In this document: piece by piece, positions 5,347 through 38,080 of the stretch | Numbering within the stretch: position 1 is the stretch's first letter | Layout: each line of letters starts with the position of its first letter | Origin: a virus | Taxonomy: Duplodnaviria; Caudoviricetes | DNA: 64,000 nucleotides | IMG/VR virus record: IMGVR_UViG_3300009776_000003 | Location: 6,708 to 70,707 of that record | Direction: 5' to 3' (one strand) | Translations under genes and position numbers: made by a program | The notes under the pieces: model-generated | Told to the model about the DNA's origin: nothing | Seen by the model: only the letters and a program-made list of their open reading frames with translations | The model's database searches: none

Positions 5347-5371
5347 TAACTTCTTTCGGCGAAAGGACTTG
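5347..5371. promoter_or_regulatory. Putative integrase-binding palindrome TAACTTCTT-N7-AAGGACTTG next to attP
   Basis: Imperfect 9-bp inverted arms with a 7-bp spacer abutting the tRNA fragment; similar copies at 43.5-44.4 kb. Confidence 0.55.
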
Positions 5372-5428
5372 CGACACCGACCGGACCAATCGAACTGCCC
5401 CTCCGCAGAACGTGGTAACGATTGGTAT

Positions 5429-6523
5429 ATGGTACTTTCGTACAGGCGTCGGCCAGATCGCAACACTGCCTTCTGCGAGTATCGCGGAGAGCGAATCCAC
5501 TTTCGCGGCAAGTACGGCTCGGCTGAATCGCTGGCCACTTACGAGCGATTCTGCCAAGCGGTAGCCGATGGCGACGCGGCAACTATACGGCGAATCTCGC
5601 TTTCCAAGACCGCGAAGCCGATGACGGTCGGTAGGCTCATCGACCGCTATCTGGAGTATGCTAAAGGCTACTACAGCTATGGAGAATACCACAACGTCCT
5701 GGCGGCTACGGCGCCGCTCAAAAGGCTCTGCGGTAACGACGCGGTAACGGATTTCGGTCCCATCAGGCTCAAGCATGTCCGCGAGGCTGGAGTCACCGGA
5801 TCGTGGCTCAAGCGGCCAGAGGATGCCGGTCGCCGTCCATGGTCCAGAACCACTGCGAACAAGTACGCCAAGATCCTGATCCGCATGTTCCGTTGGGGAG
5901 CCGAGGAGGAGCTGTTTCCCGCTAGCGTCGCCGCCGCCTTGGAGGTGGTCCGCAGCCTGCGGAAAGGTAAAACAGTTGGCGCAGAGGGGCAGAAAGTGTC
6001 CCCTATCGCTCAGAGCGTCGTAGACGCCACGCTGCCGTCCATGTCGCCGCAGGTGGCTGATATGGTCCAGATCCAGCTTCTGGCCGCCATGAGGCCACAA
6101 GGCGTTTATATGATGCGTCCATGCGACATCGACCGCAGTGGGGTGGTCTGGCTCTATGTGCCGGTCCAGCACAAGCAGAGCCATCTTGATATGGTCAAGA
6201 TCATCTGCCTCGGACCCAAGTGCCAGCAGATTTTGCTACCATATCTGGATCGCAACCCAGAGCAGTGGTGCTTTATAGGTCAGAAAGGTAATCGATTTAA
6301 TCACAATTCCTACATGCTGGCGATTCATCGAGCTTGCAAGCGAGCAGGCATTCCGCGCTGGAGCCCAAACCGGCTGCGCCACAGCGCCGCGACGCAGGTG
6401 GCAGCGAGGTACGATCTGGACTCAGCGCGTTGTCTGCTTGGTCATGGCAGCGTGACCACTACCATGATCTACGCGCAGCGAGACTTGGAGACGGCCTCCA
6501 AGATCGCTTTGGAGATTGGCTGA
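5429..6523 (+). CDS. int: Tyrosine recombinase / phage integrase
   Basis: Catalytic motifs MRPQG (R), NRLRH (xxR plus H) and LLGH...TTMIY (H, Y). N-terminal GKYGSAESLATYERF. Adjacent to attP. The ORF is open from 5369. Confidence 0.93.
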   Translation: MVLSYRRRPDRNTAFCEYRGERIHFRGKYGSAESLATYERFCQAVADGDAATIRRISLSKTAKPMTVGRLIDRYLEYAKGYYSYGEYHNVLAATAPLKRLCGNDAVTDFGPIRLKHVREAGVTGSWLKRPEDAGRRPWSRTTANKYAKILIRMFRWGAEEELFPASVAAALEVVRSLRKGKTVGAEGQKVSPIAQSVVDATLPSMSPQVADMVQIQLLAAMRPQGVYMMRPCDIDRSGVVWLYVPVQHKQSHLDMVKIICLGPKCQQILLPYLDRNPEQWCFIGQKGNRFNHNSYMLAIHRACKRAGIPRWSPNRLRHSAATQVAARYDLDSARCLLGHGSVTTTMIYAQRDLETASKIALEIG

Positions 6524-6669
6524 CGCACGATTGCGGCTTGCTCGCATTCGTCGCATGTGCGATGGCTGGAGTTAAGCCATCCGGCAGCCCTGTGCGGAGT
6601 CAGGTTCTTGGCCATAATCTCCGTCACTCTTCCATCGGTGATTAGGCACACGCAGTATCTAGCGCGCAT
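6469..6669 (-). CDS. Small protein convergent with, and overlapping the end of, int
   Basis: Strong AAAGGAG RBS and its own promoter; contains a CDEC motif. Confidence 0.55.
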   Translation of the reverse strand: MRARYCVCLITDGRVTEIMAKNLTPHRAAGWLNSSHRTCDECEQAAIVRQPISKAILEAVSKSRCA

Positions 6670-6729
6670 CTTACGCTCCTTTCCCCATTCAATGGGCCTC
6701 TTCGAGGTGGTGTGCGTGGAAGTTCGGTT

Positions 6730-6758
6730 AGCCTAATGTGAGTTGCGATTGATGTCAA
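6730..6758 (-). promoter_or_regulatory. Leftward promoter pointing into int
   Basis: TTGACA-17 bp-TAGGCT on the minus strand. Confidence 0.55.
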
Positions 6759-6865
6759 ATGTTTTTTGTGCGGATATGTGATGCAACATCATGCAACTCG
6801 TTTACAGATAACGAGATGCGAAAAACTACATCCGATTTTTGAGGCTTACTGGTAAACTGTTATGA

Positions 6866-7075
6866 ATGTCCGTTTACGAATGTGAGCTTTGCGAGACCGC
6901 CTTTCACCGGAAACTGACCAATGGACTCTGCGCTCGATGCCGCCGCCAAGTTACTCAAAGAAACTATGGAGGAGATTTCTCCGACCGACTCGCATATGGC
7001 TTTGAGCTACTTTCCGCAGCCGGAGACGACGAGGGTGAAGCGCAAGACGAAGCCGAAGCCAGAAGGTGTCCCTAA
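6866..7075 (+). CDS. Small Zn-finger protein
   Basis: CELC...CARC; extended -10 TGGTAAACT ends 8 nt before the ATG, so it may be leaderless. Confidence 0.6.
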   Translation: MSVYECELCETAFHRKLTNGLCARCRRQVTQRNYGGDFSDRLAYGFELLSAAGDDEGEAQDEAEARRCP

Positions 7076-7442
7076 GTACACTGGTGTTAGCTGGAGCCCT
7101 TACATCGGAAAGTGGACGGTCACGATAGGTCGCAAAGGTCGGAGCGTCAACTGCGGTTACTACGAGGACGCTGCCGAGGCCGCGATGATCTCGGACTGGC
7201 TGTCGTACCACATCCCTCGCGGCAACACCGGAAGGCCGACCAGATGGAACTTTCCCAACCGAATTGCCGAGCGAGAGTCGCCCACACCGCCTAGTGGACT
7301 CGCGCTGGAATACGCCATTTTGTATCTACGCAAGTTTGGAATTGTCTATGACCCCAATCCCCCAAGAGCCGCCAACGATCCCCCAACTGATCAGCAACAA
7401 GAATACGACCCAACACTGTTGCGATTCAATCCCTACTTCTGA
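7035..7442 (+). CDS. AP2-domain DNA-binding protein
   Basis: KYTGVSW...GKWTVTI...G.SVNCGYYEDAAEAA matches the AP2 pattern; GTG start chosen. Confidence 0.75.
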   Translation: MKRKTKPKPEGVPKYTGVSWSPYIGKWTVTIGRKGRSVNCGYYEDAAEAAMISDWLSYHIPRGNTGRPTRWNFPNRIAERESPTPPSGLALEYAILYLRKFGIVYDPNPPRAANDPPTDQQQEYDPTLLRFNPYF

Positions 7443-7608
7443 ACCGCGTCCAGTTGGTGATCGCATCATCATTCGCCTCGCTGGCGATAGCACATTCGAG
7501 AAGGGGATGTGCGAGATTCAGTTCATGAGCGATGGAGAGTTGCGCATTACGGCACTTCGATCCATGGAAATTCTCATGGTGGATGAAGTGCATAGGGCGA
7601 TCCAATGA
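7348..7608 (+). CDS. Hypothetical protein, possibly a very divergent CsrA fold
   Basis: RPVGDRIIIRL...EIQF...ELRITA.RSMEILM.DE loosely parallels the CsrA beta-strand pattern. Confidence 0.35.
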   Translation: MTPIPQEPPTIPQLISNKNTTQHCCDSIPTSEPRPVGDRIIIRLAGDSTFEKGMCEIQFMSDGELRITALRSMEILMVDEVHRAIQ

Positions 7609-8366
7609 GACTCTTCACTTGCTTCAAGTATTTCGGCGAGCATGACATGCTTCGCCTTCGGCAGATGGAACTGGCCGAATTCGATCCAGTCTTGGTAGTG
7701 GTAGAGGGATCGAACGACTACGTTGGCCGAGATCGCAAGCCTGCGTTCCCTTATCCGTTTGCGGACAATGTCTTCTACCACTACGGCCCATTCGACGGCA
7801 GCGATCCATGGGACCGCGACTGGAATGCTTGGCAGATGTTGTGGGAACTTCTGGGCCGAGCGGAGCCGGATGGCGACGACATTGTCGTACTGAGTGACTG
7901 CGATGAGATCCCATCGCCTGCGGCCATTAAGTGCTTCGAGCGGATCGATGAACCGCATCCACTGTTCTACTGCTTGCAGATGCCCACGTTCTACTACCAT
8001 CTCAACCTGCGCTGCGATCAGCAGATAATCCGCAAGCCGAAGATCTTCCGCTGGAAGGACGCGGACAGGATCGACATGACGGCGAAGGATTTCCGTCTGA
8101 TGGAGCATGGTCCAGCGATTACCAGCGGTGGCTGGCACTTTAGCTATATGTGGCGGCCCATTGCTGACAAGATCGCTGCCATTGCTCACACCGAATTCCA
8201 TGATCCAGAGTATACCGACGACTCAAAGATCAAGGATCGAGTAGATCGCATGGTTGATCTGTTTGACCGTCCGTACACCTATAAGCTACTGAGCGATTGG
8301 TCGAGTCTGCCAAGATGTGTGCAGGAACATCCTGAGCAGTTCTCTCACCTGCTTAGGGTTGAGTGA
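7605..8366 (+). CDS. GT17-like (beta-1,4-N-acetylglucosaminyltransferase-like) glycosyltransferase
   Basis: CFKYFGEHDMLRLR..EL...VVVE, DIVVLSDCDEIP and GGWHFSY motifs. Confidence 0.85.
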   Translation: MRLFTCFKYFGEHDMLRLRQMELAEFDPVLVVVEGSNDYVGRDRKPAFPYPFADNVFYHYGPFDGSDPWDRDWNAWQMLWELLGRAEPDGDDIVVLSDCDEIPSPAAIKCFERIDEPHPLFYCLQMPTFYYHLNLRCDQQIIRKPKIFRWKDADRIDMTAKDFRLMEHGPAITSGGWHFSYMWRPIADKIAAIAHTEFHDPEYTDDSKIKDRVDRMVDLFDRPYTYKLLSDWSSLPRCVQEHPEQFSHLLRVE

Positions 8367-9052
8367 TGCGACCAATCTTTGTGATCCAGCACGTCTGCGC
8401 GGTGAACGATTACGAACTGCTATTGGCTAGACAGATTGGAAGATTTGAGAAGCATGGCCTAACCAAATCTGCGGTTCGGCACATCGTTGGAATCGTTGGC
8501 GAGAGGGTGCGTCCTGACGAGTACGAGTGCTTGCAGCATAAGATGTCCACGCGGTACTTGGGGATCTTGACGCTGGGAGAGGAGCCTACGCTAAAACTGC
8601 TGCATCGCGTGGCGATGATCAATCCAGAGGCGGCAATACTGTACACGCATCTTAAGGGGATCACGCACTCTCGCGACGAAGAGTGTCAAAGCGCATGGAA
8701 CGACTGCATGATGTGGCATCTGGTTGACAACTGGGAGGAGTGCGTCGAGAAGCTAGATGAGTGCGATGTGGTGTCGTCCATTTGGAGCGAAAAGCCGTAC
8801 CCTCACGCCAATGGAAATATGTTCTGGTGCACTGGTGAACATGCTGTCAAATGCGGTCTGCCGGTTCAGTTGTGCAACCGTTACGACTGCGAAGCGTGGA
8901 TCGGCAAAGGCAATCCGAAGGTGGCCCACGCCTTTACTCCCAATCGCGACCTGTATGAAGCGCTGGTTCAGCCGAGCGAGTACGAAAAAGAAGTCATCGA
9001 ATGGAACATAAGGGAACCTCTATCATGTACGGATTCTCAGAAAGCACTCTGA
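8363..9052 (+). CDS. Putative glycosyltransferase-like protein
   Basis: ILYTHLKG...W..CMMW..V.NWEEC...L...D...HANGNMFW...R..CEAWIG, a pattern recurrent in viral glyco loci. Confidence 0.55.
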   Translation: MMRPIFVIQHVCAVNDYELLLARQIGRFEKHGLTKSAVRHIVGIVGERVRPDEYECLQHKMSTRYLGILTLGEEPTLKLLHRVAMINPEAAILYTHLKGITHSRDEECQSAWNDCMMWHLVDNWEECVEKLDECDVVSSIWSEKPYPHANGNMFWCTGEHAVKCGLPVQLCNRYDCEAWIGKGNPKVAHAFTPNRDLYEALVQPSEYEKEVIEWNIREPLSCTDSQKAL

Positions 9053-9576
9053 AGGATCGTGTTGAACTGGCCGACTTGCTCAACGAAAGGCTGCTGCTGG
9101 GCACAGCGGTAGAAATTGGTACACTTCGAGCCGATTATGCAGCGGCGTTTCTGGCGAGGTGGAATGGAAAGAGGCTGGTGACGGTAGATCCCTTCGTGGG
9201 AAATTTAGAAAATTACGACGACACTTGCAATACCCCAGATCGAAGCGGCGACCGAGAAATTGCCTACAACGCGCTGAAGGGCTATCGCGAGCGAGCGATC
9301 ATGTTGCGCGACACATCCGAAGAAGCAGTCAAACTGTTCGCTGACGGCTGCCTCGACTTCTGCTACATCGACGGCAACCACGCGCTGGTGGATCAGGACA
9401 TCAAGCTCTGGTGGCCCAAGATGAAAAGCGGCGGATTGTTCGCAGGTCACGATTGGGACAGTTGGCATCAGTATGTGATCCCAGCATTGGAGGACTTCAC
9501 TAAGCGTGAGGAAGTGGCGGTTCGTTTGATTCCTGCATCGAACGTCTCTGGGAGTTGGTTCGCGTGGAAGCCATGA
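9025..9576 (+). CDS. Class I SAM-dependent methyltransferase (Methyltransf_24-like)
   Basis: VEIGT, LVTVDPF, DFCYIDGNH and LWWPKMKSGGLFAGHD motifs. Confidence 0.85.
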   Translation: MYGFSESTLKDRVELADLLNERLLLGTAVEIGTLRADYAAAFLARWNGKRLVTVDPFVGNLENYDDTCNTPDRSGDREIAYNALKGYRERAIMLRDTSEEAVKLFADGCLDFCYIDGNHALVDQDIKLWWPKMKSGGLFAGHDWDSWHQYVIPALEDFTKREEVAVRLIPASNVSGSWFAWKP

Positions 9577-10094
9577 CCGTACCGCACGAAGAGATGCCGC
9601 AGCGAAAGTGGCTGAGGACAGAGTATCTGCCGTCTCTCAATGGAACGGCGCTTTACATTGGAGTCCGCTGGTACTGTGAGGATTACTGGAAGCTAGTTCC
9701 AGATCCAGATCTGTTCTGCACAGTTGACATAGATCCGGCGCAGGCGCACTTTGGGAGCCCCAAGAACCACTATGTCTGCGATGCGACATCACTGTTAGTC
9801 AGAAGCAGGTATGACCATGTGTCTGCTTTCGGACTCTTTGGGATGCCAGACAGCCATCTAAAGACGCCCAGCAAGATCGTTGAATTCCTCCGCTTGTGCG
9901 CCAGTGCCGTCAATGACGGTGGAACGCTAATGTTTTCGTGTGGAACAAGAACCCTCAACATGGAGCAGGTGAACGAGATATGTCAGCAACTATTGACACC
10001 AGACTGGATAGCCCTGAAGGACTGGACGCTAAAGCCGTCACCAGAACACAGCGAGGAACGGATCTTGTGGATACGCCGCTGCCAGAACTCCTAA
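9573..10094 (+). CDS. Putative SAM-dependent methyltransferase
   Basis: ALYIGV, TVDIDP, VCDA and YDHV motifs; DGGTLMF. Confidence 0.6.
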   Translation: MTVPHEEMPQRKWLRTEYLPSLNGTALYIGVRWYCEDYWKLVPDPDLFCTVDIDPAQAHFGSPKNHYVCDATSLLVRSRYDHVSAFGLFGMPDSHLKTPSKIVEFLRLCASAVNDGGTLMFSCGTRTLNMEQVNEICQQLLTPDWIALKDWTLKPSPEHSEERILWIRRCQNS

Positions 10095-10660
10095 ACGGTA
10101 GGCGGCTGCTGTGGATCGTAGCGCACCATGACGACATGGAACTGTACAGCGGTGGGTTGCTGACGCTTGTGCCAGATGCGAAGAAGGAATGTGTGGTCAT
10201 GACGGCACCGGCTCCTAATCGGCCAGACACTGGAACTCGCGAGGGCAGTTTTCGGCAGGTGTGCGGTTTGATGGGAGTGGACGGATGGGGATACGGATTG
10301 AAGGATTACTCTCCTAGCACACCGGCACATCAGATCGAGTGGAGGGACTTTGGCGGCGTTAAGCCTCATGGCGTACCGGAGTTCATCATCTCCAGCGGAT
10401 ATGCAGGAGAGCCAAACCGCGTCTATCCGCAAGGGCATGTAGTCCATCGACTGACCGGATTTTTCGCGAAGAAGTTGGCGAGAGAACTGGACGTTCCGCT
10501 CATCGAGTTCTCGATCAATTCTCACTTCGACTGGATCGTTCGTTATGCGGTGGCTGCAAAGAAGCAGTTGCTGGACTTCTATCGAGCAAACTGGGACTAC
10601 ACGCAATACTGTCTTTGGAATACTGTGGAAAGGTTTGCACTATGGCATCACCTGCTCTGA
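9980..10660 (+). CDS. PIG-L family de-N-acetylase
   Basis: LWIVAHHDDMELYSGGLL (AHxDD), TRE and HVVH motifs; start uncertain. Confidence 0.8.
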   Translation: MSATIDTRLDSPEGLDAKAVTRTQRGTDLVDTPLPELLNGRRLLWIVAHHDDMELYSGGLLTLVPDAKKECVVMTAPAPNRPDTGTREGSFRQVCGLMGVDGWGYGLKDYSPSTPAHQIEWRDFGGVKPHGVPEFIISSGYAGEPNRVYPQGHVVHRLTGFFAKKLARELDVPLIEFSINSHFDWIVRYAVAAKKQLLDFYRANWDYTQYCLWNTVERFALWHHLL

Positions 10661-11370
10661 TCACCTTCGTATCGGAGGACTATCAGGACACGCTCCACTT
10701 GACGATCCCATCGTGGTTGCGCGTTGCGGCGTGTATGATTGTCATTTACACAGACTTCGATCCTAGCTTGGATCGGCGCTACACGCTGCTGAGAGATCCT
10801 AGAGTAAAGGTAGAGAGATGCTTCGAGCCGGTTAACTGGGTTGAATGTTCCAAGAGGCAGTATCAGTGTGCAATGAAGTTCATGTATGAACATGACAATC
10901 CGTTCGCATTTCTGGATGCAGACTGTTATGTGATGCGAGATTTCTTGGAAGTATTCGAGACTGGGTGCGATCTTGCCGCTACGAGGATGTACACCGATCC
11001 GCACTCCTACACTGGAGGAACCTCGACATCTGGCGTCTTCTTCGCGCAGAACAATGAAAGGACCATGCGGTTCCTTGAGGTGTGGGAGGCGATGTCTCTG
11101 GAGTACGAAAGTGCCGGATTGCATTCCAAGCCATACGCTGCCACGTTTGCGCAGTATGCGTTCAGTGGTGTTCTTCACAGCGCTCACGCGACCGGAGAGC
11201 CATGTTCGGTGGCGAGGCTGGACGAACACATTTACAACTGCGAGCACAGTGACATCGAGAAGTGGAAGAAGCTCTGCGCTGAGCACAAGCCAGCTATCAT
11301 CCACTTCAAGGGCCGCAGTTTTCGCAACGACCAATTCCGAGAAGAGATGATCCAGTTGGCCACCGCATGA
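10642..11370 (+). CDS. GT-A nucleotide-diphospho-sugar transferase
   Basis: FAFLDADCYV (DxD), SGVFF, AQYAF, HIYN and IIHFKG motifs. Confidence 0.75.
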   Translation: MASPALITFVSEDYQDTLHLTIPSWLRVAACMIVIYTDFDPSLDRRYTLLRDPRVKVERCFEPVNWVECSKRQYQCAMKFMYEHDNPFAFLDADCYVMRDFLEVFETGCDLAATRMYTDPHSYTGGTSTSGVFFAQNNERTMRFLEVWEAMSLEYESAGLHSKPYAATFAQYAFSGVLHSAHATGEPCSVARLDEHIYNCEHSDIEKWKKLCAEHKPAIIHFKGRSFRNDQFREEMIQLATA

Positions 11371-12053
11371 CGCTAATCCTTACTACCTGCTTTTCTACCG
11401 TTACTTGTCCGCAGCGCGGTAAGTACGCGAACGTAACGCAAGATCTCATTGCTCCATGGTGCGATAGCGTTGTCGAGCATGGACTGCATGGCATGGTCTA
11501 TTACGACAGATTGCCTGCCGGAACTGAGGAGCGGTGGCCTGAGATCGCTTTCGTTCCAAGAGCACCTTCGTTCATAGCGTCTTGCAATGATGTTCGCTTT
11601 CTCTACTACGCTGCCACGCTGCGAGAGAAGAACATCAGAGAGGATGTTGTTGCGGCCACTGATATGTTTGATGTAACGGTGGTGGGCGATCCAGCAAAAG
11701 AGCTTGGCGACTATCCGCTTGGTTTTGGACTTCAAGGCGAGACTATCGGAAACAACGTCGCTGTTCGCAATAAGCTGCTGGAATGCTATGCGAAGAACGA
11801 TGTCAATCGAATGAACGACCGACCCATTGTTGCCGCAGGTACGATGGTGGGACGGTTCAAGGAGTTCAGAGAGCTGATCCATCGTCTCGCAAGGTCCATT
11901 ACGATTCAGGTTGCCAATGGAATATGGAACTCCAACATGGCCTGCCTACAGAAGGTGCTCAATGGAATGTATCCAGATCTCTCGCAAGTCAAGCTAGGAC
12001 TGGATTGCTTCGTCCATGAATGGACCGGAATGCGTAGTGAGAACTACATCTGA
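11367..12053 (+). CDS. Putative glycosyltransferase-like protein
   Basis: NDVRFLYY, VAATDMFDV and AGTMVG motifs; embedded in the GT operon with overlapping stop/start. Confidence 0.5.
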   Translation: MTLILTTCFSTVTCPQRGKYANVTQDLIAPWCDSVVEHGLHGMVYYDRLPAGTEERWPEIAFVPRAPSFIASCNDVRFLYYAATLREKNIREDVVAATDMFDVTVVGDPAKELGDYPLGFGLQGETIGNNVAVRNKLLECYAKNDVNRMNDRPIVAAGTMVGRFKEFRELIHRLARSITIQVANGIWNSNMACLQKVLNGMYPDLSQVKLGLDCFVHEWTGMRSENYI

Positions 12054-12742
12054 TGCTAACCGTCATCGTTCCCACCTGCTCCAACGAATCGCTGGAGAAG
12101 TTCCTTCCCAGTTTCTACAAGTACTGCGACGCCAATCTGGTGGTCGTCTTCAACGGTGAGGAACGCCAGCCCAAGATCCCCTACGGCCACTGCATCTACC
12201 ACCCCAAGCGGATCGGCTACACCATCGCCGTCAACGAGGCGTGGGACTGGATCAACCAGCCTCGGCTGCTTTCGGATGGAGATATGGTGGCGGTGGTTAA
12301 TGACGACGTAGAGTTCGCTGGAAGGTGCTTCGAGCCGCTGGTAGATGCGATCCGACGCGGCGCCGCACTGGCTGCACCGTCCGTACAGCCCATTGGCCGA
12401 GATGGCTTGTGGGCCAGATCTGGAGAGCCATACCGTTGGGTCTTCGCCGAAGGCTGGCTATTCGTTACAACGGCTGGCTGGATACGCCGCGCTGGAGAGA
12501 TTGCCCCAATGGGGATGATGGTGCCCCAGATCTACGATGCTGCATTCACTCCTGCTTATTGTGAGGATTGCGACTTTTCGATTCGCTTATACGAAGCGGG
12601 TGGAAAAATTTTCAAAGTTCCTGTTCCGGCCATTCACCGCAGGTCTCAGACGTTCTCTAAGTTGGGTCCACTAAAGGACTTATGGTGGTCTAGGAGCCGC
12701 GAGTATCTTATCGCCAAGTGGCGGCTGGATACCATAGCATAA
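12053..12742 (+). CDS. GT2 family glycosyltransferase
   Basis: MLTVIVPT, AVVNDDVEF and YCEDCDFSIR motifs. Confidence 0.85.
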   Translation: MLTVIVPTCSNESLEKFLPSFYKYCDANLVVVFNGEERQPKIPYGHCIYHPKRIGYTIAVNEAWDWINQPRLLSDGDMVAVVNDDVEFAGRCFEPLVDAIRRGAALAAPSVQPIGRDGLWARSGEPYRWVFAEGWLFVTTAGWIRRAGEIAPMGMMVPQIYDAAFTPAYCEDCDFSIRLYEAGGKIFKVPVPAIHRRSQTFSKLGPLKDLWWSRSREYLIAKWRLDTIA

Positions 12743-12778
12743 GCAAAACTTATAGTGTTAATAAGAATTGCTTATAGT
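12739..12778. promoter_or_regulatory. Tandem operator-like dyads ATAAG-N5-CTTAT(AGT) upstream of the head operon
   Basis: ATAAGCAAAACTTATAGT (12739-12756) and ATAAGAATTGCTTATAGT (12761-12778), 22 bp apart. Confidence 0.55.
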
Positions 12779-12842
12779 ATCATGCGGCTAAGCCTGAATT
12801 CTTTCCCACCCAATTTCCGCTCCCCCCTCCCAAGGAGCGTCG

Positions 12843-13880
12843 ATGTCGGACGATCTTTCCTCCACCTCTACAAGTAGCCTTGAAGACGATCTTCGAGCGT
12901 CTATGCAGGCTATGTCTCCAGAGGCTCCAGAAACGTCTACGGAGCCCACAGAGGCCACTTCTGCACCAGAGGCTACTTCTGAGCCTGCGACCGAGGATAC
13001 GCCCTCTGGCGAGCCAGAAGACGGTCTAGCACTCGCTCGCTATGCGGATGCGATGCTGGGCTCCAGTTACAGCAGCAAGTACAAGAACGATCAGGAAGCG
13101 ATTCTTGGTTGGCACAACGCAGTTCAGCGACTGTCGCAGCGTGACGAGGACGCAGCCTACGGCAGGCAACTCAAGGAGTACGAGAGTGAGTTCAGATCGT
13201 TTTTGGAGTCTCGCCAAAGACCTGCTCAAGCTCCTCCTGCCGAGCAGCTTCAGCAAACCAACCTCCCAACCATCAGAGACTATGAGCGCTGGAAAAATGA
13301 AATCGCCCAAAAAGGTGAGCAAGCCTCCCCAGAAACGATCCGCCGTTTCACCGAAGCCAACGAAAAAATCCAAGAAGCCATGCTGAACTTGGCGTTCCGG
13401 CCTCATGAAGTATTGAAGCCGGTCGTCAAACCAGAGGTAGAGCAACTCGCTCAGCAGGCACAGCAGTACACGCAGCAGCTCGCTCAACAGCAGCAGCAGA
13501 TGGCGTGGCAGAACTGGATCGGTGAGAACCGAAGCTGGATCTTCGAGGGTGGAGAATACGGCAAACCGCTGACACCTTACGCGCAGCGCTTTATGGGCCA
13601 CCTCCAGAACGCGGCTCAACGCCAGATGCCCATCGACGCTGGTTTCCAGTACGCCCACGCCATGGCTGGCATGGAGCAACTTCAACAGCAGCAGCAAGCT
13701 CAGCAGGCAGTGGCGCCGAAGGTCGAAGCTCCTAAGAAGCATGCCACTCGGCAACCGGCCATTGCGGCGCCAGCCAACGCGGAGCCGAGCTACCAGGATC
13801 TAGTGGACAAGATGGATCTCGAACAGCACCTGCTTTACAACCTGCGAAAAGCGCAGGCATCGGCAGGATCTGTGACTTGA
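12843..13880 (+). CDS. Capsid scaffolding protein
   Basis: Acidic, low-complexity N-terminus and Gln-rich coiled coils; immediately upstream of the MCP. Confidence 0.65.
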   Translation: MSDDLSSTSTSSLEDDLRASMQAMSPEAPETSTEPTEATSAPEATSEPATEDTPSGEPEDGLALARYADAMLGSSYSSKYKNDQEAILGWHNAVQRLSQRDEDAAYGRQLKEYESEFRSFLESRQRPAQAPPAEQLQQTNLPTIRDYERWKNEIAQKGEQASPETIRRFTEANEKIQEAMLNLAFRPHEVLKPVVKPEVEQLAQQAQQYTQQLAQQQQQMAWQNWIGENRSWIFEGGEYGKPLTPYAQRFMGHLQNAAQRQMPIDAGFQYAHAMAGMEQLQQQQQAQQAVAPKVEAPKKHATRQPAIAAPANAEPSYQDLVDKMDLEQHLLYNLRKAQASAGSVT

Positions 13881-13926
13881 TACAGGCTTGCGCTCAAGCC
13901 GCGAGCGGAGGGGGCGGCTTGGGTGC

Positions 13927-13971
13927 GGTGTGGCAGAGAGGATACTCCCACCGGACCCTCTCTGTCACACC
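13927..13971 (+). other. 15-bp stem-loop in the MCP leader
   Basis: GGTGTGGCAGAGAGG / CCTCTCTGTCACACC with one G-T pair, followed by AATTTT. Confidence 0.6.
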
Positions 13972-14068
13972 AATTTTAGACAGTCCCTCCGCAGCCGCTT
14001 ATCAACCCTCCGCTTCTCACAGCCGCCAAGCGTAACACTACACACATCCTCACTGAGGAGCGATACAG

Positions 14069-15172
14069 ATGGCAACTTCTGCCGCGACAACGACAGTCAT
14101 GACGCCTAATGCGCGGATTGACGTTAGTGTGATCAATGATCACATTAAGAAGCTGACTGAACCATTGTACAGAAAACATCTTCTGCTTGGCATGATGCGC
14201 AAGAAGGGTCGCATCATCAGCAATTGCAGTGGGAAGGGCTTCGACTGGAGAGTCAAGTTCCGTCGCGCCACGCCGCAGACCGGCGACGACATGTCCACCA
14301 ACACCTTTCAGCGCATGAACCGCTACAAGAAAGCCGAGCTTCCTTGGCGGCGTCTCTGGTACGGCGAGGCGATCTCCGATTTCGAGAAGCGGTGCGCTGG
14401 TGGGCCGGAAGCGCTGATCAAGTTGGTCAGCGAGTGGGCCAAGTCGGCGACTGACGACTGCAACGAGTACTTCGCCACCGAGATTTTCGGTGACGGCGAC
14501 TCGACCACCACGCCGGATCACATCCATGGATTGGAGACGCTTTTCAAGACGAATACCGGCTACGCTGCGATCTCCAGTTCGGTCTTCGTCAAGACCGGAA
14601 ACTCCGACACTTATGCTGGCCTGTATACGCAGGTCGGCAAGTATTCCAGCGACTGGACTGGAACATTCCCTGATGGCACCGGAAGCGAGACCTATCATTT
14701 CTGGAGTCCATGGTGGGTCGATACGACCAACGCCAACCACAGCGCCTCCACGAAGACTTGGCCCAATACTTGGCGTGAGTGCTTACGCAAGCTGAGCACT
14801 GCGCAGCAGGCGCTGGTTGGGCAACAGCCAGACATCATCATCCTCGCGCCTGAGTACTTGCGTCAGGCGAAGGAAAGCCTCGATGCGAAAGAACGCATTG
14901 AGGTTACTGCCGCCAGCGATGCGGTCGATTTGGGCTTCAAAACCGTCAACTTTGAAGGAATCGAACTCGCGGCAGAATACGGCGTCTCTGGCGTCGGCTA
15001 CGGAGTTTGCTACGACAAGATGGAGCTGCGTCTGCTTGGCCAGAGCCAACTGTTCGAGGCCAAGAAGGACTACGACATCGAGACGAATACTGATCGTCTC
15101 CTTCTCGAATGCTACTCCAACATGAAGTTCGAGTCTCCCATCTACTTCAGCAAACTCTCGGCTGTCTCCTAG
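14069..15172 (+). CDS. Major capsid protein
   Basis: 367 aa, after the scaffold and before the decoration gene and terminator. GAGGAG RBS, strongly biased codons, and a pattern typical of HK97-fold coats (IHGLE, DIIIL, GFKTVNFEG). Confidence 0.8.
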   Translation: MATSAATTTVMTPNARIDVSVINDHIKKLTEPLYRKHLLLGMMRKKGRIISNCSGKGFDWRVKFRRATPQTGDDMSTNTFQRMNRYKKAELPWRRLWYGEAISDFEKRCAGGPEALIKLVSEWAKSATDDCNEYFATEIFGDGDSTTTPDHIHGLETLFKTNTGYAAISSSVFVKTGNSDTYAGLYTQVGKYSSDWTGTFPDGTGSETYHFWSPWWVDTTNANHSASTKTWPNTWRECLRKLSTAQQALVGQQPDIIILAPEYLRQAKESLDAKERIEVTAASDAVDLGFKTVNFEGIELAAEYGVSGVGYGVCYDKMELRLLGQSQLFEAKKDYDIETNTDRLLLECYSNMKFESPIYFSKLSAVS

Positions 15173-15197: not shown

Positions 15198-15758
15198 ATG
15201 AGCGTTTATCCGACACTGCCATTTCCGCGTGGGCAAACCTACGGAGACGGCCAACTGACCTTGACCGATACGACTGCCAAGCATCTGGAAGGCAAGCGAT
15301 TCCGCGTGCCTGACACGCTGCATGGCACGAAGGGGGATGTCGTTCTTCGCGTTGTGAAGAACGATGCTGGCGCCGATCTCACCATCAGCAAGCGCGTCCT
15401 CAAGTGGTCAACCGCTTCCGAGGACGACATCGGCAATCGCGTGGACGGCTGGGCCACCGCCTCGGTCCATGGCAAGCCGATTGACGACTACTACCTCGGT
15501 CGCAAGACGACCATTCCAGACGATGACCTTTTCTATGTAGTGGACGAAGGTCCATGTGATGTACTGATTTCCACCACTACCTCGACTGCTATCTCGGCTG
15601 CTGGAAAGCCGGTTCAGGTCGCAGCCGCTGGTTGCGTTGGGCAGTGCGCCGACAACAAGATCTCCATCGGAACCGCGCTGGAGGCGAAGAGTACGGCTGC
15701 ATTGACGGCAGTGGCCATCTATGTCCATGCCGGAATCATCACCAACTACAACGCCTAG
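15198..15758 (+). CDS. Capsid decoration/cement protein
   Basis: Directly after the MCP; VVDEGPCDV and IGTALEA motifs of cement-like proteins. Confidence 0.6.
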   Translation: MSVYPTLPFPRGQTYGDGQLTLTDTTAKHLEGKRFRVPDTLHGTKGDVVLRVVKNDAGADLTISKRVLKWSTASEDDIGNRVDGWATASVHGKPIDDYYLGRKTTIPDDDLFYVVDEGPCDVLISTTTSTAISAAGKPVQVAAAGCVGQCADNKISIGTALEAKSTAALTAVAIYVHAGIITNYNA

Positions 15759-15844: not shown

Positions 15845-16633
15845 ATGTACCGAATCTGCGTGATCTTGCCGACCGGCTTCTCGTACACCTGTCCTGATCT
15901 GTCCACTTGGGTTTTCCGATGGGCGTATCATCTCCATCTCGATCAGGACATCGCCGGTCTCGACTGGTTTCAGGTCAAGAACTGCCGCATCGATCTGATG
16001 CGCAATATGGGAGTGGCCCACGCGAGGGCGACCAAAGCGACCCATATCCTCTGGATCGATCCAGACATGGTGCTGGACAAGTACCTCGGCAAGACAGCGT
16101 CAGGAGAGCCGGTTGCAAACTCACGCTTCAAGCCGTTCTGGCAGACCGCGTGGAAGTTCATCAAAGAGCATCCGATGTCGATTGCGGCGGCACCTTACTG
16201 CGGTTGCTACCCGCTGAGACCTTGGCATGTCTTCACCAAGAACGAGAGCGACAGATTGGTCCGCGTGGATCACGAAACTGCGCGCAACCTGCGGGGCTGG
16301 ACAGCGGTAGAGGCGGTCGGAACTGGCGCCATGCTTATGGACGCGAGGATCTTCGACCGATTGGAGCAGCCTTACTTCAGAGACTCTTATCAGGACGAGA
16401 CGCATACCAAGTTGCGACTGACGCAGGATGTGGATTTCTGTCTGCGGTGTCGCGGCAAGGGAGTCGGCATCTACGTCAACTGGGACACGCCAGCAGGACA
16501 CTGGCAGAACTCGGTGGTCGATCCGCCCTATCTGGAAGAGATCGAACACTACGAAGCTCCTGTACCTTTGGCCAACGATCCATCGGTCCCAGTGTTGACG
16601 ATGGAGGGTGGTGGCGACAAGGCATGGACATAA
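15845..16633 (+). CDS. GT-A (GT2-like) glycosyltransferase inside the head/packaging operon
   Basis: ICVILPT, IDLMRN, HILWIDPDM, VEAVGTGAMLM and QDVDFCLR motifs. Confidence 0.8.
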   Translation: MYRICVILPTGFSYTCPDLSTWVFRWAYHLHLDQDIAGLDWFQVKNCRIDLMRNMGVAHARATKATHILWIDPDMVLDKYLGKTASGEPVANSRFKPFWQTAWKFIKEHPMSIAAAPYCGCYPLRPWHVFTKNESDRLVRVDHETARNLRGWTAVEAVGTGAMLMDARIFDRLEQPYFRDSYQDETHTKLRLTQDVDFCLRCRGKGVGIYVNWDTPAGHWQNSVVDPPYLEEIEHYEAPVPLANDPSVPVLTMEGGGDKAWT

Positions 16634-37363: not shown

Positions 37364-38080
37364 ATGGATACATCTAATTGGCCAAAGGTTTCCTGCTTGT
37401 GTATCGCAGGAAAGTCACGCTACAACGCCACTGTACTCTTGCCAGTGGCGGTCCAGTGCTTTATCGAGCAGGACTATCCGAACAAAGAGCTGGTCGTTGT
37501 TTACGACGACAACTGGAAAGCTGTCGGCAGTGTGAGCCAGCGGTTCGACTGTAAGGATGTCCGCTGGCATGTCACCGACAAGGCGCCACTTGGAGCGCTG
37601 AGGAACAAGTCGATAGAGTTCGCCAGTTCTGGTCTGCTGGTGCAGTGGGATTCGGACGACGCATTCCATCCTCACTACGTTTCTGTGATGGTTCGCACCC
37701 ACCTGCAATCGCAGCTCCCAGTCTTCCTCAAGCGCCAACTGGTTTACGACCTGCAACGAGATGTTGCCGCCGTTCGCAGTTTTCCAAAGACTTGCATTCA
37801 TGGAGCCAACCTCCTGCCCAGAGGTGACTGGCGATACCCAGAGATTGGCGCCACCGAGGATACGGAGATCCTCAAGCACTTTCCGCATGTAGCTTTGCTC
37901 GATGCGCCAGAGTTGTACCTGCGGATGTTTACAGGCGACAACACTTGGGATCGCCTCCATGTCATGCGAGAAGCCTCCGAATGGCCCAGTGGTACTTGGA
38001 TGATACCTGAGAGGGCGATAGAGTGGGTTAGGGAAGTCACCTCTCGCTACTCTTCTTCCGATACTTCGGTTTCTGCCTAA
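37364..38080 (+). CDS. GT2 family glycosyltransferase (lone plus-strand gene)
   Basis: KVSCLC, AVQCFIEQDYPNKELVVVYD, LGALRN and VQWDSDD motifs. Confidence 0.85.
   Translation: MDTSNWPKVSCLCIAGKSRYNATVLLPVAVQCFIEQDYPNKELVVVYDDNWKAVGSVSQRFDCKDVRWHVTDKAPLGALRNKSIEFASSGLLVQWDSDDAFHPHYVSVMVRTHLQSQLPVFLKRQLVYDLQRDVAAVRSFPKTCIHGANLLPRGDWRYPEIGATEDTEILKHFPHVALLDAPELYLRMFTGDNTWDRLHVMREASEWPSGTWMIPERAIEWVREVTSRYSSSDTSVSA

Follow-up and report, generated by a model that had tools for sequence, protein, structure and literature searches.

To our knowledge, only a few mycobacteriophages have been shown to glycosylate their virions with enzymes of their own, a modification that shields the particles from antibodies. 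Here we analyse a locus that may serve the same kind of modification in an uncultured phage. It lies in IMG/VR record IMGVR_UViG_3300009776_000003, a complete viral genome of 70,707 bp (terminal overlap of 123 bp; IMG/VR class direct terminal repeats; CheckV completeness 100%), of which we analysed positions 6,708 to 70,707; this stretch of 64,000 nucleotides is the window to which all unlabelled coordinates refer. The phage is temperate and known only from metagenome assemblies, of which there are four others. Eight overlapping plus-strand genes, g1-g8, span positions 7605-12742, just upstream of the scaffold and capsid genes, and two further glycosyltransferase (GT) genes, g9 and g10, lie elsewhere in the window. 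The reading that we favour, with middling confidence, is that the eight-gene block is a virion-glycosylation cassette. The ten genes are as follows:

7605..8366, plus strand: g1, GT17-like GT-A glycosyltransferase with a DCD motif
8366..9052, plus strand: g2, member of DUF8361 (PF27674), a mostly viral family, without a DxD motif
9025..9576, plus strand: g3, cation-dependent O-methyltransferase of the Methyltransf_24 type
9573..10094, plus strand: g4, orphan with a possible class I S-adenosylmethionine (SAM) methyltransferase fold and a degenerate glycine loop
10067..10660, plus strand: g5, orphan, candidate metal-dependent deacetylase of PIG-L/LmbE-like type
10642..11370, plus strand: g6, GT-A nucleotide-diphospho-sugar transferase with a DAD motif
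11367..12053, plus strand: g7, probable glycosyltransferase matching phrog_1579 (E 2e-7)
12053..12742, plus strand: g8, GT2-like GT-A glycosyltransferase
15845..16633, plus strand: g9, GT-A glycosyltransferase of 262 amino acids (aa), between the cement-like and terminase genes
37364..38080, plus strand: g10, lone GT2 gene beside a serine recombinase

A role in capsid and tail-tube glycosylation has been attributed to gp35-38 of mycobacteriophage Corndog and gp108-110 of mycobacteriophage Che8 (Freeman et al. 2023, as cited in PMC12363180 and PMC12619734). In the Corndog record these overlapping genes encode one methyltransferase and three GTs and lie two genes ahead of the major head gene; in the Che8 record they are three GTs, found with an HNH gene at the genome end joining the structural arm. 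Our locus resembles both in having an overlapping run of soluble GTs (with a methyltransferase, as in Corndog) in or beside the structural genes, here in the order HNH endonuclease, block, scaffold, capsid. It differs from them in size, with eight plus two enzymes against their three or four, in including a GT17, a DUF8361 and a PIG-L-like protein, and in lacking a C-terminal Ser/Thr acceptor tail. The profiles of g9, Methyltransf_24 and DUF8361 matched no Corndog or Che8 protein, and a tblastn search with g3 against 50,697 phage records hit no mycobacteriophage. By analogy, the locus would at most work like the mycobacteriophage system, and would not be a member of it by descent.

A second point of comparison is the capsid N-glycan machinery of chlorovirus PBCV-1, which includes A064R (GT, GT, methyltransferase), A061L, A111/114R and A075L; the A064R-D2 domain is a metal-independent GT whose family is not recognised by standard searches (PMC9614988). 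Like the phage locus, the chlorovirus set combines several soluble, cytoplasmic GTs with methyltransferases (two in the chlorovirus) and it builds a methylated capsid glycan, but it belongs to a 330-kb algal virus and not to a 70.7-kb tailed phage. That DUF8361 is the family of A064R-D2 (A064R residues 213-438) is a speculative possibility; the likeness is indirect and lies in the lack of a DxD motif, the length of about 210 residues, the viral occurrence and the fusion to GT-A and Methyltransf_24 domains. A further comparison is with the DUF8361 glycan islands of uncultured phages, cyanophages and giant viruses, in which the types of g1, g2 and g3 recur together. Those islands often carry genes for sugar-nucleotide synthesis, whereas a Pfam scan of the non-structural genes found none in this phage, and here the island stands at the head of the structural block of an unrelated lineage.

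The O-antigen conversion modules of temperate phages such as P22, SfV, epsilon15 and D3 are small and consist of integral membrane proteins (GtrA, GtrB, GtrC, Oac and Wzy variants). Our phage has in common with them that it is temperate and carries accessory sugar-modifying genes near attP and int. Unlike them, it has ten soluble enzymes and no membrane component: none of the ten contains a 19-residue stretch with a mean Kyte-Doolittle hydropathy of 1.6 or more, so that no membrane helix is predicted, and no Pfam family of the Gtr kind occurs elsewhere in the genome.

The pathway that we propose would run as follows. Late in infection, g9 would act in the cytoplasm as the priming enzyme and attach the first sugar to a virion protein, of which those of the capsid and cement genes are the likeliest. 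The eight soluble inserted enzymes would then extend and tailor this sugar, using nucleotide sugars and SAM from the host. They would provide three to five GTs (g1, g6, g7, g8 and perhaps g2), the O-methyltransferase g3, possibly a second methyltransferase (g4) and a probable de-N-acetylase (g5), and the particle would leave the cell with a methylated hetero-oligosaccharide. The gene content, the solubility of the enzymes, the site of the insertion, the conservation of g9 and its fusion to the O-methyltransferase type are observed; we infer the acceptor, the order of the steps, the identities of the sugars and the late expression. As far as can be judged from its composition, the enzyme set would suit a soluble acceptor that is modified in the cytoplasm at the expense of the host's nucleotide sugars. 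The first-pass annotation had already suggested that the glycan may be on the virion, with remodelling of the host surface as the alternative; the virion stays the best single reading, and it gains a link between g9 and Methyltransf_24, the site of the insertion and the mycobacteriophage-like layout.

The phage was compared with its relatives. The capsid protein has 19 homologues in a large protein collection and at least 214 in IMG/VR, the latter at 27-38% identity, from which 80 loci were fetched; the closest capsid relatives are P0002 (54% identity, encoded on a 71.5-kb contig), P0009 and P0014. Searches of GenBank phages (blastn with the region, tblastn with the capsid protein or a g9 homologue as query) gave no match, and IMG/VR single-protein scans with the capsid protein and with g1 returned nothing. 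Closer relatives, among them L289 and L290, were found by scanning JGI metagenomes with a capsid protein of 41% identity. The gene order scaffold, capsid, (cement), slot, terminase, portal is kept in 80 of the 80 IMG/VR relatives.

The slot between the capsid and terminase genes is where g9 resides. Members of its family occupy this slot in 34 of the 68 evaluable IMG/VR relatives and occur nowhere else in those loci; the homologues in L289 and L290 match at about E 1e-60 (7e-60 in L290). On the capsid tree, which is a quick, midpoint-rooted one with long branches, g9 is found on all deep branches and at least four changes are required. Its presence on all of these branches suggests, provisionally, that g9 is an ancestral head-module gene with a few losses and not a moron. 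The gene has no Pfam match, and its profile found nothing meaningful among PDB sequences. An alignment of 31 family members contains the motifs RN..A, DxD and (S)TEDV, with D72 and D74 invariant, and the AlphaFold 2 model (predicted local distance difference test (pLDDT) score 78) has a GT-A fold. When this model was compared with the PDB by Foldseek, at least 173 structures matched at E <= 1e-3, all of them GT-A among the matches listed. The best were the collagen galactosyltransferase COLGALT1, STIV A197, the LH3 transferase domain and ppGalNAc-T2, that is, protein-modifying GT-A enzymes and a viral GT, which speaks for the virion reading. The best viral folds, in BFVD, were GT-A proteins of uncultured phages, some of them fused to methyltransferases.

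The same fusion occurs among the relatives themselves. In eight of them a Methyltransf_24 domain follows g9 in the same polypeptide, and in L006 the two are separate adjacent genes, making nine loci in total. Because g3, within the inserted block, is also of the Methyltransf_24 type, these fusions tie the block to g9 in the manner of a Rosetta stone; no other internal evidence connects the two as well. Fused genes are located, for example, at 13154-14581 in L049, 13399-14784 in L063, 12009-13667 in L028, 3760-5379 in L027 and 10427-11827 in L042; in L070 (12727-14505) the g9 domain is preceded by about 140 extra N-terminal residues. The cement-terminase slot of the relatives has other occupants as well. 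Among its 58 dereplicated proteins there are matches to endonuclease VII PHROG families (phrog_1035 being the commonest, with up to 8) and four to an HNH family, which suggests that homing-type endonucleases reside in the head module; genes in the slots of L071 (11950-13491) and L077 (11957-13324) are examples.

The block itself is less deeply rooted than the g9 family. No homologues of g1, g2, g4-g8 or g10 were found in the 80 IMG/VR relatives, no GT was recognised by Pfam among 133 dereplicated genes that precede the scaffold gene in relatives, and 11 relative records that are at least 90% complete (about 56-63 kb) had no GT2 match. The first-pass annotation had proposed a synteny survey of this kind; carried out here, it finds the head-module order conserved and g9 widely shared, and the eight-gene block in none. 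The site is best seen in L290, a 52-kb contig in which leftward early genes meet a rightward block composed of HNH, scaffold, capsid, cement, the g9 homologue, terminase (E 3.5e-144) and portal. The HNH homologue of L290 stands directly before the scaffold gene; the eight genes of our phage have therefore been inserted between these two, behind the gene that opens the rightward structural block. By the same comparison, the HNH gene is the first conserved gene of that block and the left border of the insertion. A second, independent cassette is found in the relative whose terminase is most similar, G009 (the record of L045): at L163 (G009:C1), positions 6105-11174 on the minus strand, three GT2-like genes lie in a run of small genes just after a 1347-aa tail gene. 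Their sequences are unrelated to those of the window enzymes, so transferase cassettes come and go at module borders in this phage lineage.

Around the ten enzyme genes, the following features define the layout:

5369-6523, upstream of the block: tyrosine integrase
6921..7442, plus strand: HNH endonuclease (phrog_99, phrog_3593, phrog_4578)
12743..12842, plus strand: AT-rich spacer, candidate promoter/operator of the scaffold and capsid genes
12843-13880, plus strand: scaffold protein, 345 aa, called by its position and its L290 homologue (E 2e-24)
14069-15172, plus strand: major capsid protein (phrog_9953, E 1.8e-15)
15198-15758, plus strand: cement-like decoration protein, with a weak match to Phage_cement_2

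The scaffold protein has no family match, and its call depends on position and the L290 homologue only. Together with the major capsid and cement-like proteins, it is a candidate acceptor. Beyond the cement-like gene come g9 and small genes of the packaging region, followed by the large terminase and portal genes (both called by position and conservation) and then by the tail genes. Within the block, translational coupling is continuous when the most likely starts are used: g1 and g2 join at TGATG, g2 and g3 overlap by 28 nt (start 9025), g3 and g4 join at ATGA (start 9573), g4 and g5 overlap by 28 nt (start 10067), g5 and g6 overlap by 19 nt (start 10642), g6 and g7 join at ATGA, and g7 and g8 at TGATG. 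An ATGA also joins g1 to a small open reading frame upstream (7264-7608, plus strand), which runs over the 3' end of HNH and matches no family; should it be real, the small coupled gene is probably confined to the final 35-50 codons. The gene calls in a public protein collection are identical to ours for g2 (228 aa) and g5 (197 aa), and for g4 are longer by three codons (176 aa versus 173 here).

The block is separated from the scaffold gene by a 100-nt gap, the AT-rich spacer. Its GC content of 0.40 is the lowest of any 100-nt block between 4.5 and 16 kb. It contains two copies of CTTATAGT, 22 nt apart on the plus strand (12749-12778), which occur nowhere else in the window, and a moderate hairpin (fold z -2.2). 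It aligns to the spacer between HNH and scaffold in L290 (8640-8760), which reads TTGACA-N18-TAGAAT. From these features, the capsid genes may keep a promoter of their own, in which case transcription of the block may start further upstream and take in HNH as well. The first-pass annotation had described the block as fused to the capsid operon; this is overstated, given an AT-rich spacer that aligns to a promoter-like one. A sigma-70 scan of the plus strand from 4.8 to 19.5 kb found no promoter, a result of little weight since the consensus may not be that of the host.

Between the scaffold and capsid genes (13900-14045, plus strand) there is a very stable hairpin, with a 15-bp perfect stem inside a longer stem (-63.5 kcal/mol, z -4.65; 0 of 200 shuffles fold as well). 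It could be an element for RNA processing, attenuation or stoichiometry. Residues 31-50 of the scaffold protein (12933-12992) form a low-complexity tract of Thr, Ser, Glu, Pro and Ala, TSTEPTEATSAPEATSEPAT. The capsid protein has a private Ser/Thr-rich N-terminal extension, ATSAATTT, that is absent in relatives; it is the sole, and weak, hint of an acceptor that we could recognise in the proteins.

The assignments of the individual enzymes differ in strength. Among the GTs, g1 matches Glyco_transf_17 (PF04724) with 55.5 bits against a cut-off of 26 (E 6.2e-15; profile positions 81-308 of 348), and g6 matches Nucleotid_trans (PF03407) above the cut-off, with 41.2 bits (E 2.4e-10). For g7 there was no Pfam match and no PDB sequence match, and its probable GT function is drawn from the PHROG family. 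The g8 protein scores 22.0 bits with Glycos_transf_2 (PF00535), just under the cut-off of 23.3, and matches phrog_29879, a PHROG galactosyltransferase family, at E 2.2e-5, while g10 exceeds the PF00535 cut-off with 24.7-25.1 bits and is possibly part of the same glycan chemistry as the block. Comparison of g7, g8 and DUF8361 with the g9 family by hhalign showed no relation.

The methyltransferase g3 matches Methyltransf_24 (PF13578) with 47.2 bits against a cut-off of 26.3 (E 4.5e-12), and its family profile matches PDB entry 6g7d at 9e-14, followed by COMT-like cation-dependent O-methyltransferases; a literature search for 6G7D found nothing. The label 'DNA methyltransferase' that PHROGs gives this family is misleading in view of that profile. 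Its neighbour g4, a possible second methyltransferase, was picked up as a language-model feature lead in the ESM Atlas (score 0.94). It aligns by hhalign to a Methyltransf_11 alignment over motifs post-I to IV (17%, E 1.4e-3; shuffled g4 reached at most 2.2%); there was no Pfam or PDB match, and hhalign against the Methyltransf_24 family showed no relation. Neither g4 nor g5 has a homologue beyond itself in a word-based search of a collection of 5.8 billion protein clusters.

The g5 protein is probably a very divergent metal-dependent deacetylase of the PIG-L/LmbE-like type. It scores 15 bits with Pfam PF02585 (E 0.037), below the cut-off of 28.2 and over the first 34 profile positions only, and a PDB sequence search gave nothing meaningful. 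It has AHHDD at residues 19-23 and HVVH at residues 124-127, at the spacing of the PIG-L family. We therefore compared it with a custom alignment of 14 bacterial PIG-L proteins found with PF02585: g5 reached 14.2 bits on the resulting hidden Markov model (HMM), against 6.6 for the best of 200 shuffles, and hhalign scored it at 85.6% locally and 78.6% globally, the global alignment placing HVVH on HPDH and AHHDD on AHPDD. A single-sequence AlphaFold model (pLDDT 34.8) was unusable.

The first-pass annotation had proposed a pathway that builds or tailors a glycan, encoded by eight coupled genes directly before the scaffold and major capsid genes. The class of pathway was right and the gene content is largely as it described: the open reading frames lie where it had put them, and its GT17-like gene (g1), DxD GT-A (g6), additional GT-like gene (g7) and GT2 gene (g8, slightly below the Pfam cut-off) are all borne out, as are the two more GTs that it saw elsewhere, at 15845-16633 and 37364-38080. 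Three of its calls survive in part. It counted two methyltransferases, of which g3 stands and g4 is only weakly methyltransferase-like; its PIG-L de-N-acetylase has the motif, HMM and hhalign matches and does not reach the Pfam cut-off; and its GT-like g2 turns out to belong to the DUF8361 of phage glycan islands, leaving the transferase call with weaker support. The particular chemistry that it implied (GlcNAc transfer, then de-N-acetylation) and its Thr/Ser-rich tail proteins as acceptors gained no support from the analysis.

DUF8361 merits a closer look. The g2 protein has no match in the Pfam release that was scanned, and a PDB sequence search gave nothing meaningful; it was assigned to the family through an ESM Atlas feature (score 0.98) and structural similarity (template modelling (TM) score 0.83-0.89). 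An exhaustive HMMER search recovered 1648 cluster representatives at E <= 1e-3, many within proteins of 500-2600 residues, and the invariant or nearly invariant positions are a His, a Glu, YxHxKG, WR, HxxGNxWW and another Glu. The family profile found nothing meaningful among PDB sequences, cluster look-up of ten multidomain members gave no informative names, and literature searches for DUF8361 and PF27674 found nothing. Bacterial homologues are few at the stringency used, and include several from Planctomycetota, Chlamydiota and Actinomycetota.

In viruses the family is found on at least 432 IMG/VR contigs, both phage-sized and of giant viruses, from which we fetched 80 loci. In 11 of these, DUF8361 has a GT17 domain in the same protein or next to it; in L122, Methyltransf_24, GT17 and DUF8361 all lie within 5 kb, and other viruses have fusions of GT, DUF8361 and methyltransferase domains. 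Among 139 genes near DUF8361 in 13 phage loci, the commonest Pfam families were Methyltransf_24 (8), Methyltransf_23 (7), GT2 (6), GT1 (5), GDP-mannose dehydratase (4), epimerase (4), sulfotransferase (4), GT17 (3) and GT11 (3). PHROGs gave four matches of phage neighbours to two major-head-protein families and two to phrog_1574, the family matched by g9. Because these neighbours are glycan genes, the g2 type belongs to phage glycan islands, and we regard g2 as a putative metal-independent glycan enzyme. Several of the uncultured phage contigs that carry runs of glycan genes around DUF8361 are only 50-75 kb, so multi-gene glycan islands are not rare in mid-sized phages; this weakens the argument, made in the first annotation, that such a pathway is unusual for a genome of this size. 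At the extreme, giant open reading frames of 2388-3409 aa occur. In L099 (3891-11057) and L101 (2608-11667), on viral contigs of 40-57 kb, one polypeptide contains DUF8361 and GT17, and in L132 (45-10274), on a contig of a giant-virus metagenome-assembled genome, there are two DUF8361 domains.

Several observations weigh against a virion-glycosylation cassette. The block is absent from all 80 IMG/VR relatives and from the closer relatives, so virions of this type can do without it. Its position, three genes from attP and int, is a common one for lysogenic-conversion genes, and the AT-rich spacer is a candidate separate promoter for the scaffold and capsid genes. No capsid or tail protein has a serine repeat or a long Ser/Thr tail of the mycobacteriophage type. 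No sequence homology to the Corndog and Che8 enzymes was found (no phmmer match, and BLASTP E >=0.036 against an 11-protein database), the functional assignment of g2, g4 and g5 is weak or lacking, and the TM scores of the g9 Foldseek matches are just 0.42-0.51, too low for the type of acceptor to be read from them. The main rival is a cassette for lysogenic conversion or host takeover, in which the soluble enzymes would alter lipid- or nucleotide-linked host glycans (lipopolysaccharide core or O-unit, exopolysaccharide, or the glycan of a surface glycoprotein) at the inner face of the membrane; the host would export the products, and the receptor would be changed and superinfection blocked, or recognition of the cell altered. 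The nearness to attP and int and the lineage-specific nature of the insertion favour this explanation, and the GT2 trio at another module border in G009 suggests swappable accessory cassettes. DUF8361 also occurs in bacterial chromosomes, several of them of Planctomycetota, and the sugar-nucleotide, sulfotransferase and fucosyltransferase genes near it in phages are typical of surface-glycan islands. Soluble prophage GTs that alter cell-wall polymers do exist, for example TarP of Staphylococcus aureus prophages. On the other side, the genome has no recognisable flippase, polymerase, ligase, lipid-carrier transferase or membrane protein of the Gtr or acyltransferase type, and the genes, coupled in translation, run in the same direction as the structural block and were inserted behind its first gene, neither at the outer margin nor on the other strand. 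Nothing resembling a terminator lies between the last of them and the scaffold gene, and the fusion of a g3-type methyltransferase to g9 points to the virion side. We consider remodelling of the host surface a possible explanation, though a rather doubtful one.

The remaining explanations concern other acceptors. Hypermodification of DNA by viral GTs is well documented, the T-even phages being one example (PMC9614988; Pyle et al. 2024, as cited in PMC12619734), and the enzymes could in principle glycosylate and methylate the phage's own bases as a protection against restriction, as the PHROGs label on the g3 family and the position of g9 next to the packaging genes might suggest. The complete genome has no thymidylate-synthase-type hydroxymethylase, and no other base-modifying enzyme was recognised among the Pfam matches of the non-structural genes, which include a DnaB-like helicase, nucleases, a resolvase, RusA, a PAPS-reductase-like protein and others; that Pfam scan of the rest of the genome also found no flippase, polymerase, lipid-carrier transferase or sugar-nucleotide gene. 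The profile of g3 is that of cation-dependent O-methyltransferases and not of DNA methyltransferases, and the block is away from the replication module. We know of no precedent for a de-N-acetylase and O-methyltransferases acting on DNA sugars. Given the g3 profile and the lack of a hydroxymethylase or a base-modifying Pfam match, we largely reject DNA glycosylation, which we regard as highly improbable. Taken together, the lack of membrane helices, of flippase and sugar-nucleotide genes and of a hydroxymethylase argues both against it and against a self-contained pathway for a surface polysaccharide. The enzymes could also act on a different soluble target (a host protein or a small molecule, for instance) or make a free oligosaccharide, cytoplasmic or secreted; this would suit a set of enzymes that are all soluble, and a viral GT with a non-structural target is known in the baculovirus ecdysteroid glucosyltransferase (PMC9614988). 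No gene in the neighbourhood hints at such a target, however, and the fixation of g9 in the head module over long evolutionary distances would be left unexplained; we rate this as improbable.

If virion glycosylation is the correct reading, the trait reaches a quite different and uncultured phage lineage, with unrelated enzymes and a far larger pathway than in the mycobacteriophages. The value of the case lies in the comparative pattern more than in the single locus: the pair formed by relatives that have g9 alone and a phage that has g9 plus the eight-gene insertion could show how the complexity of a capsid glycan grows. DUF8361, which is large, mostly viral and without a described function, is also given a functional context here for the first time. 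Going further, and only tentatively because we lean against it in this full form, an uncultured lineage of tailed phages of roughly 50-70 kb may have had a protein GT in its capsid module since its origin, often in fusion with a sugar O-methyltransferase, and this member may have expanded it to a chlorovirus-like pathway of about ten enzymes, building a branched, methylated and partly de-N-acetylated capsid glycan by means of DUF8361, which would then be a virus-specific, metal-independent transferase family shared with giant viruses. If so, complex self-encoded capsid glycans would be common to phages and giant viruses.

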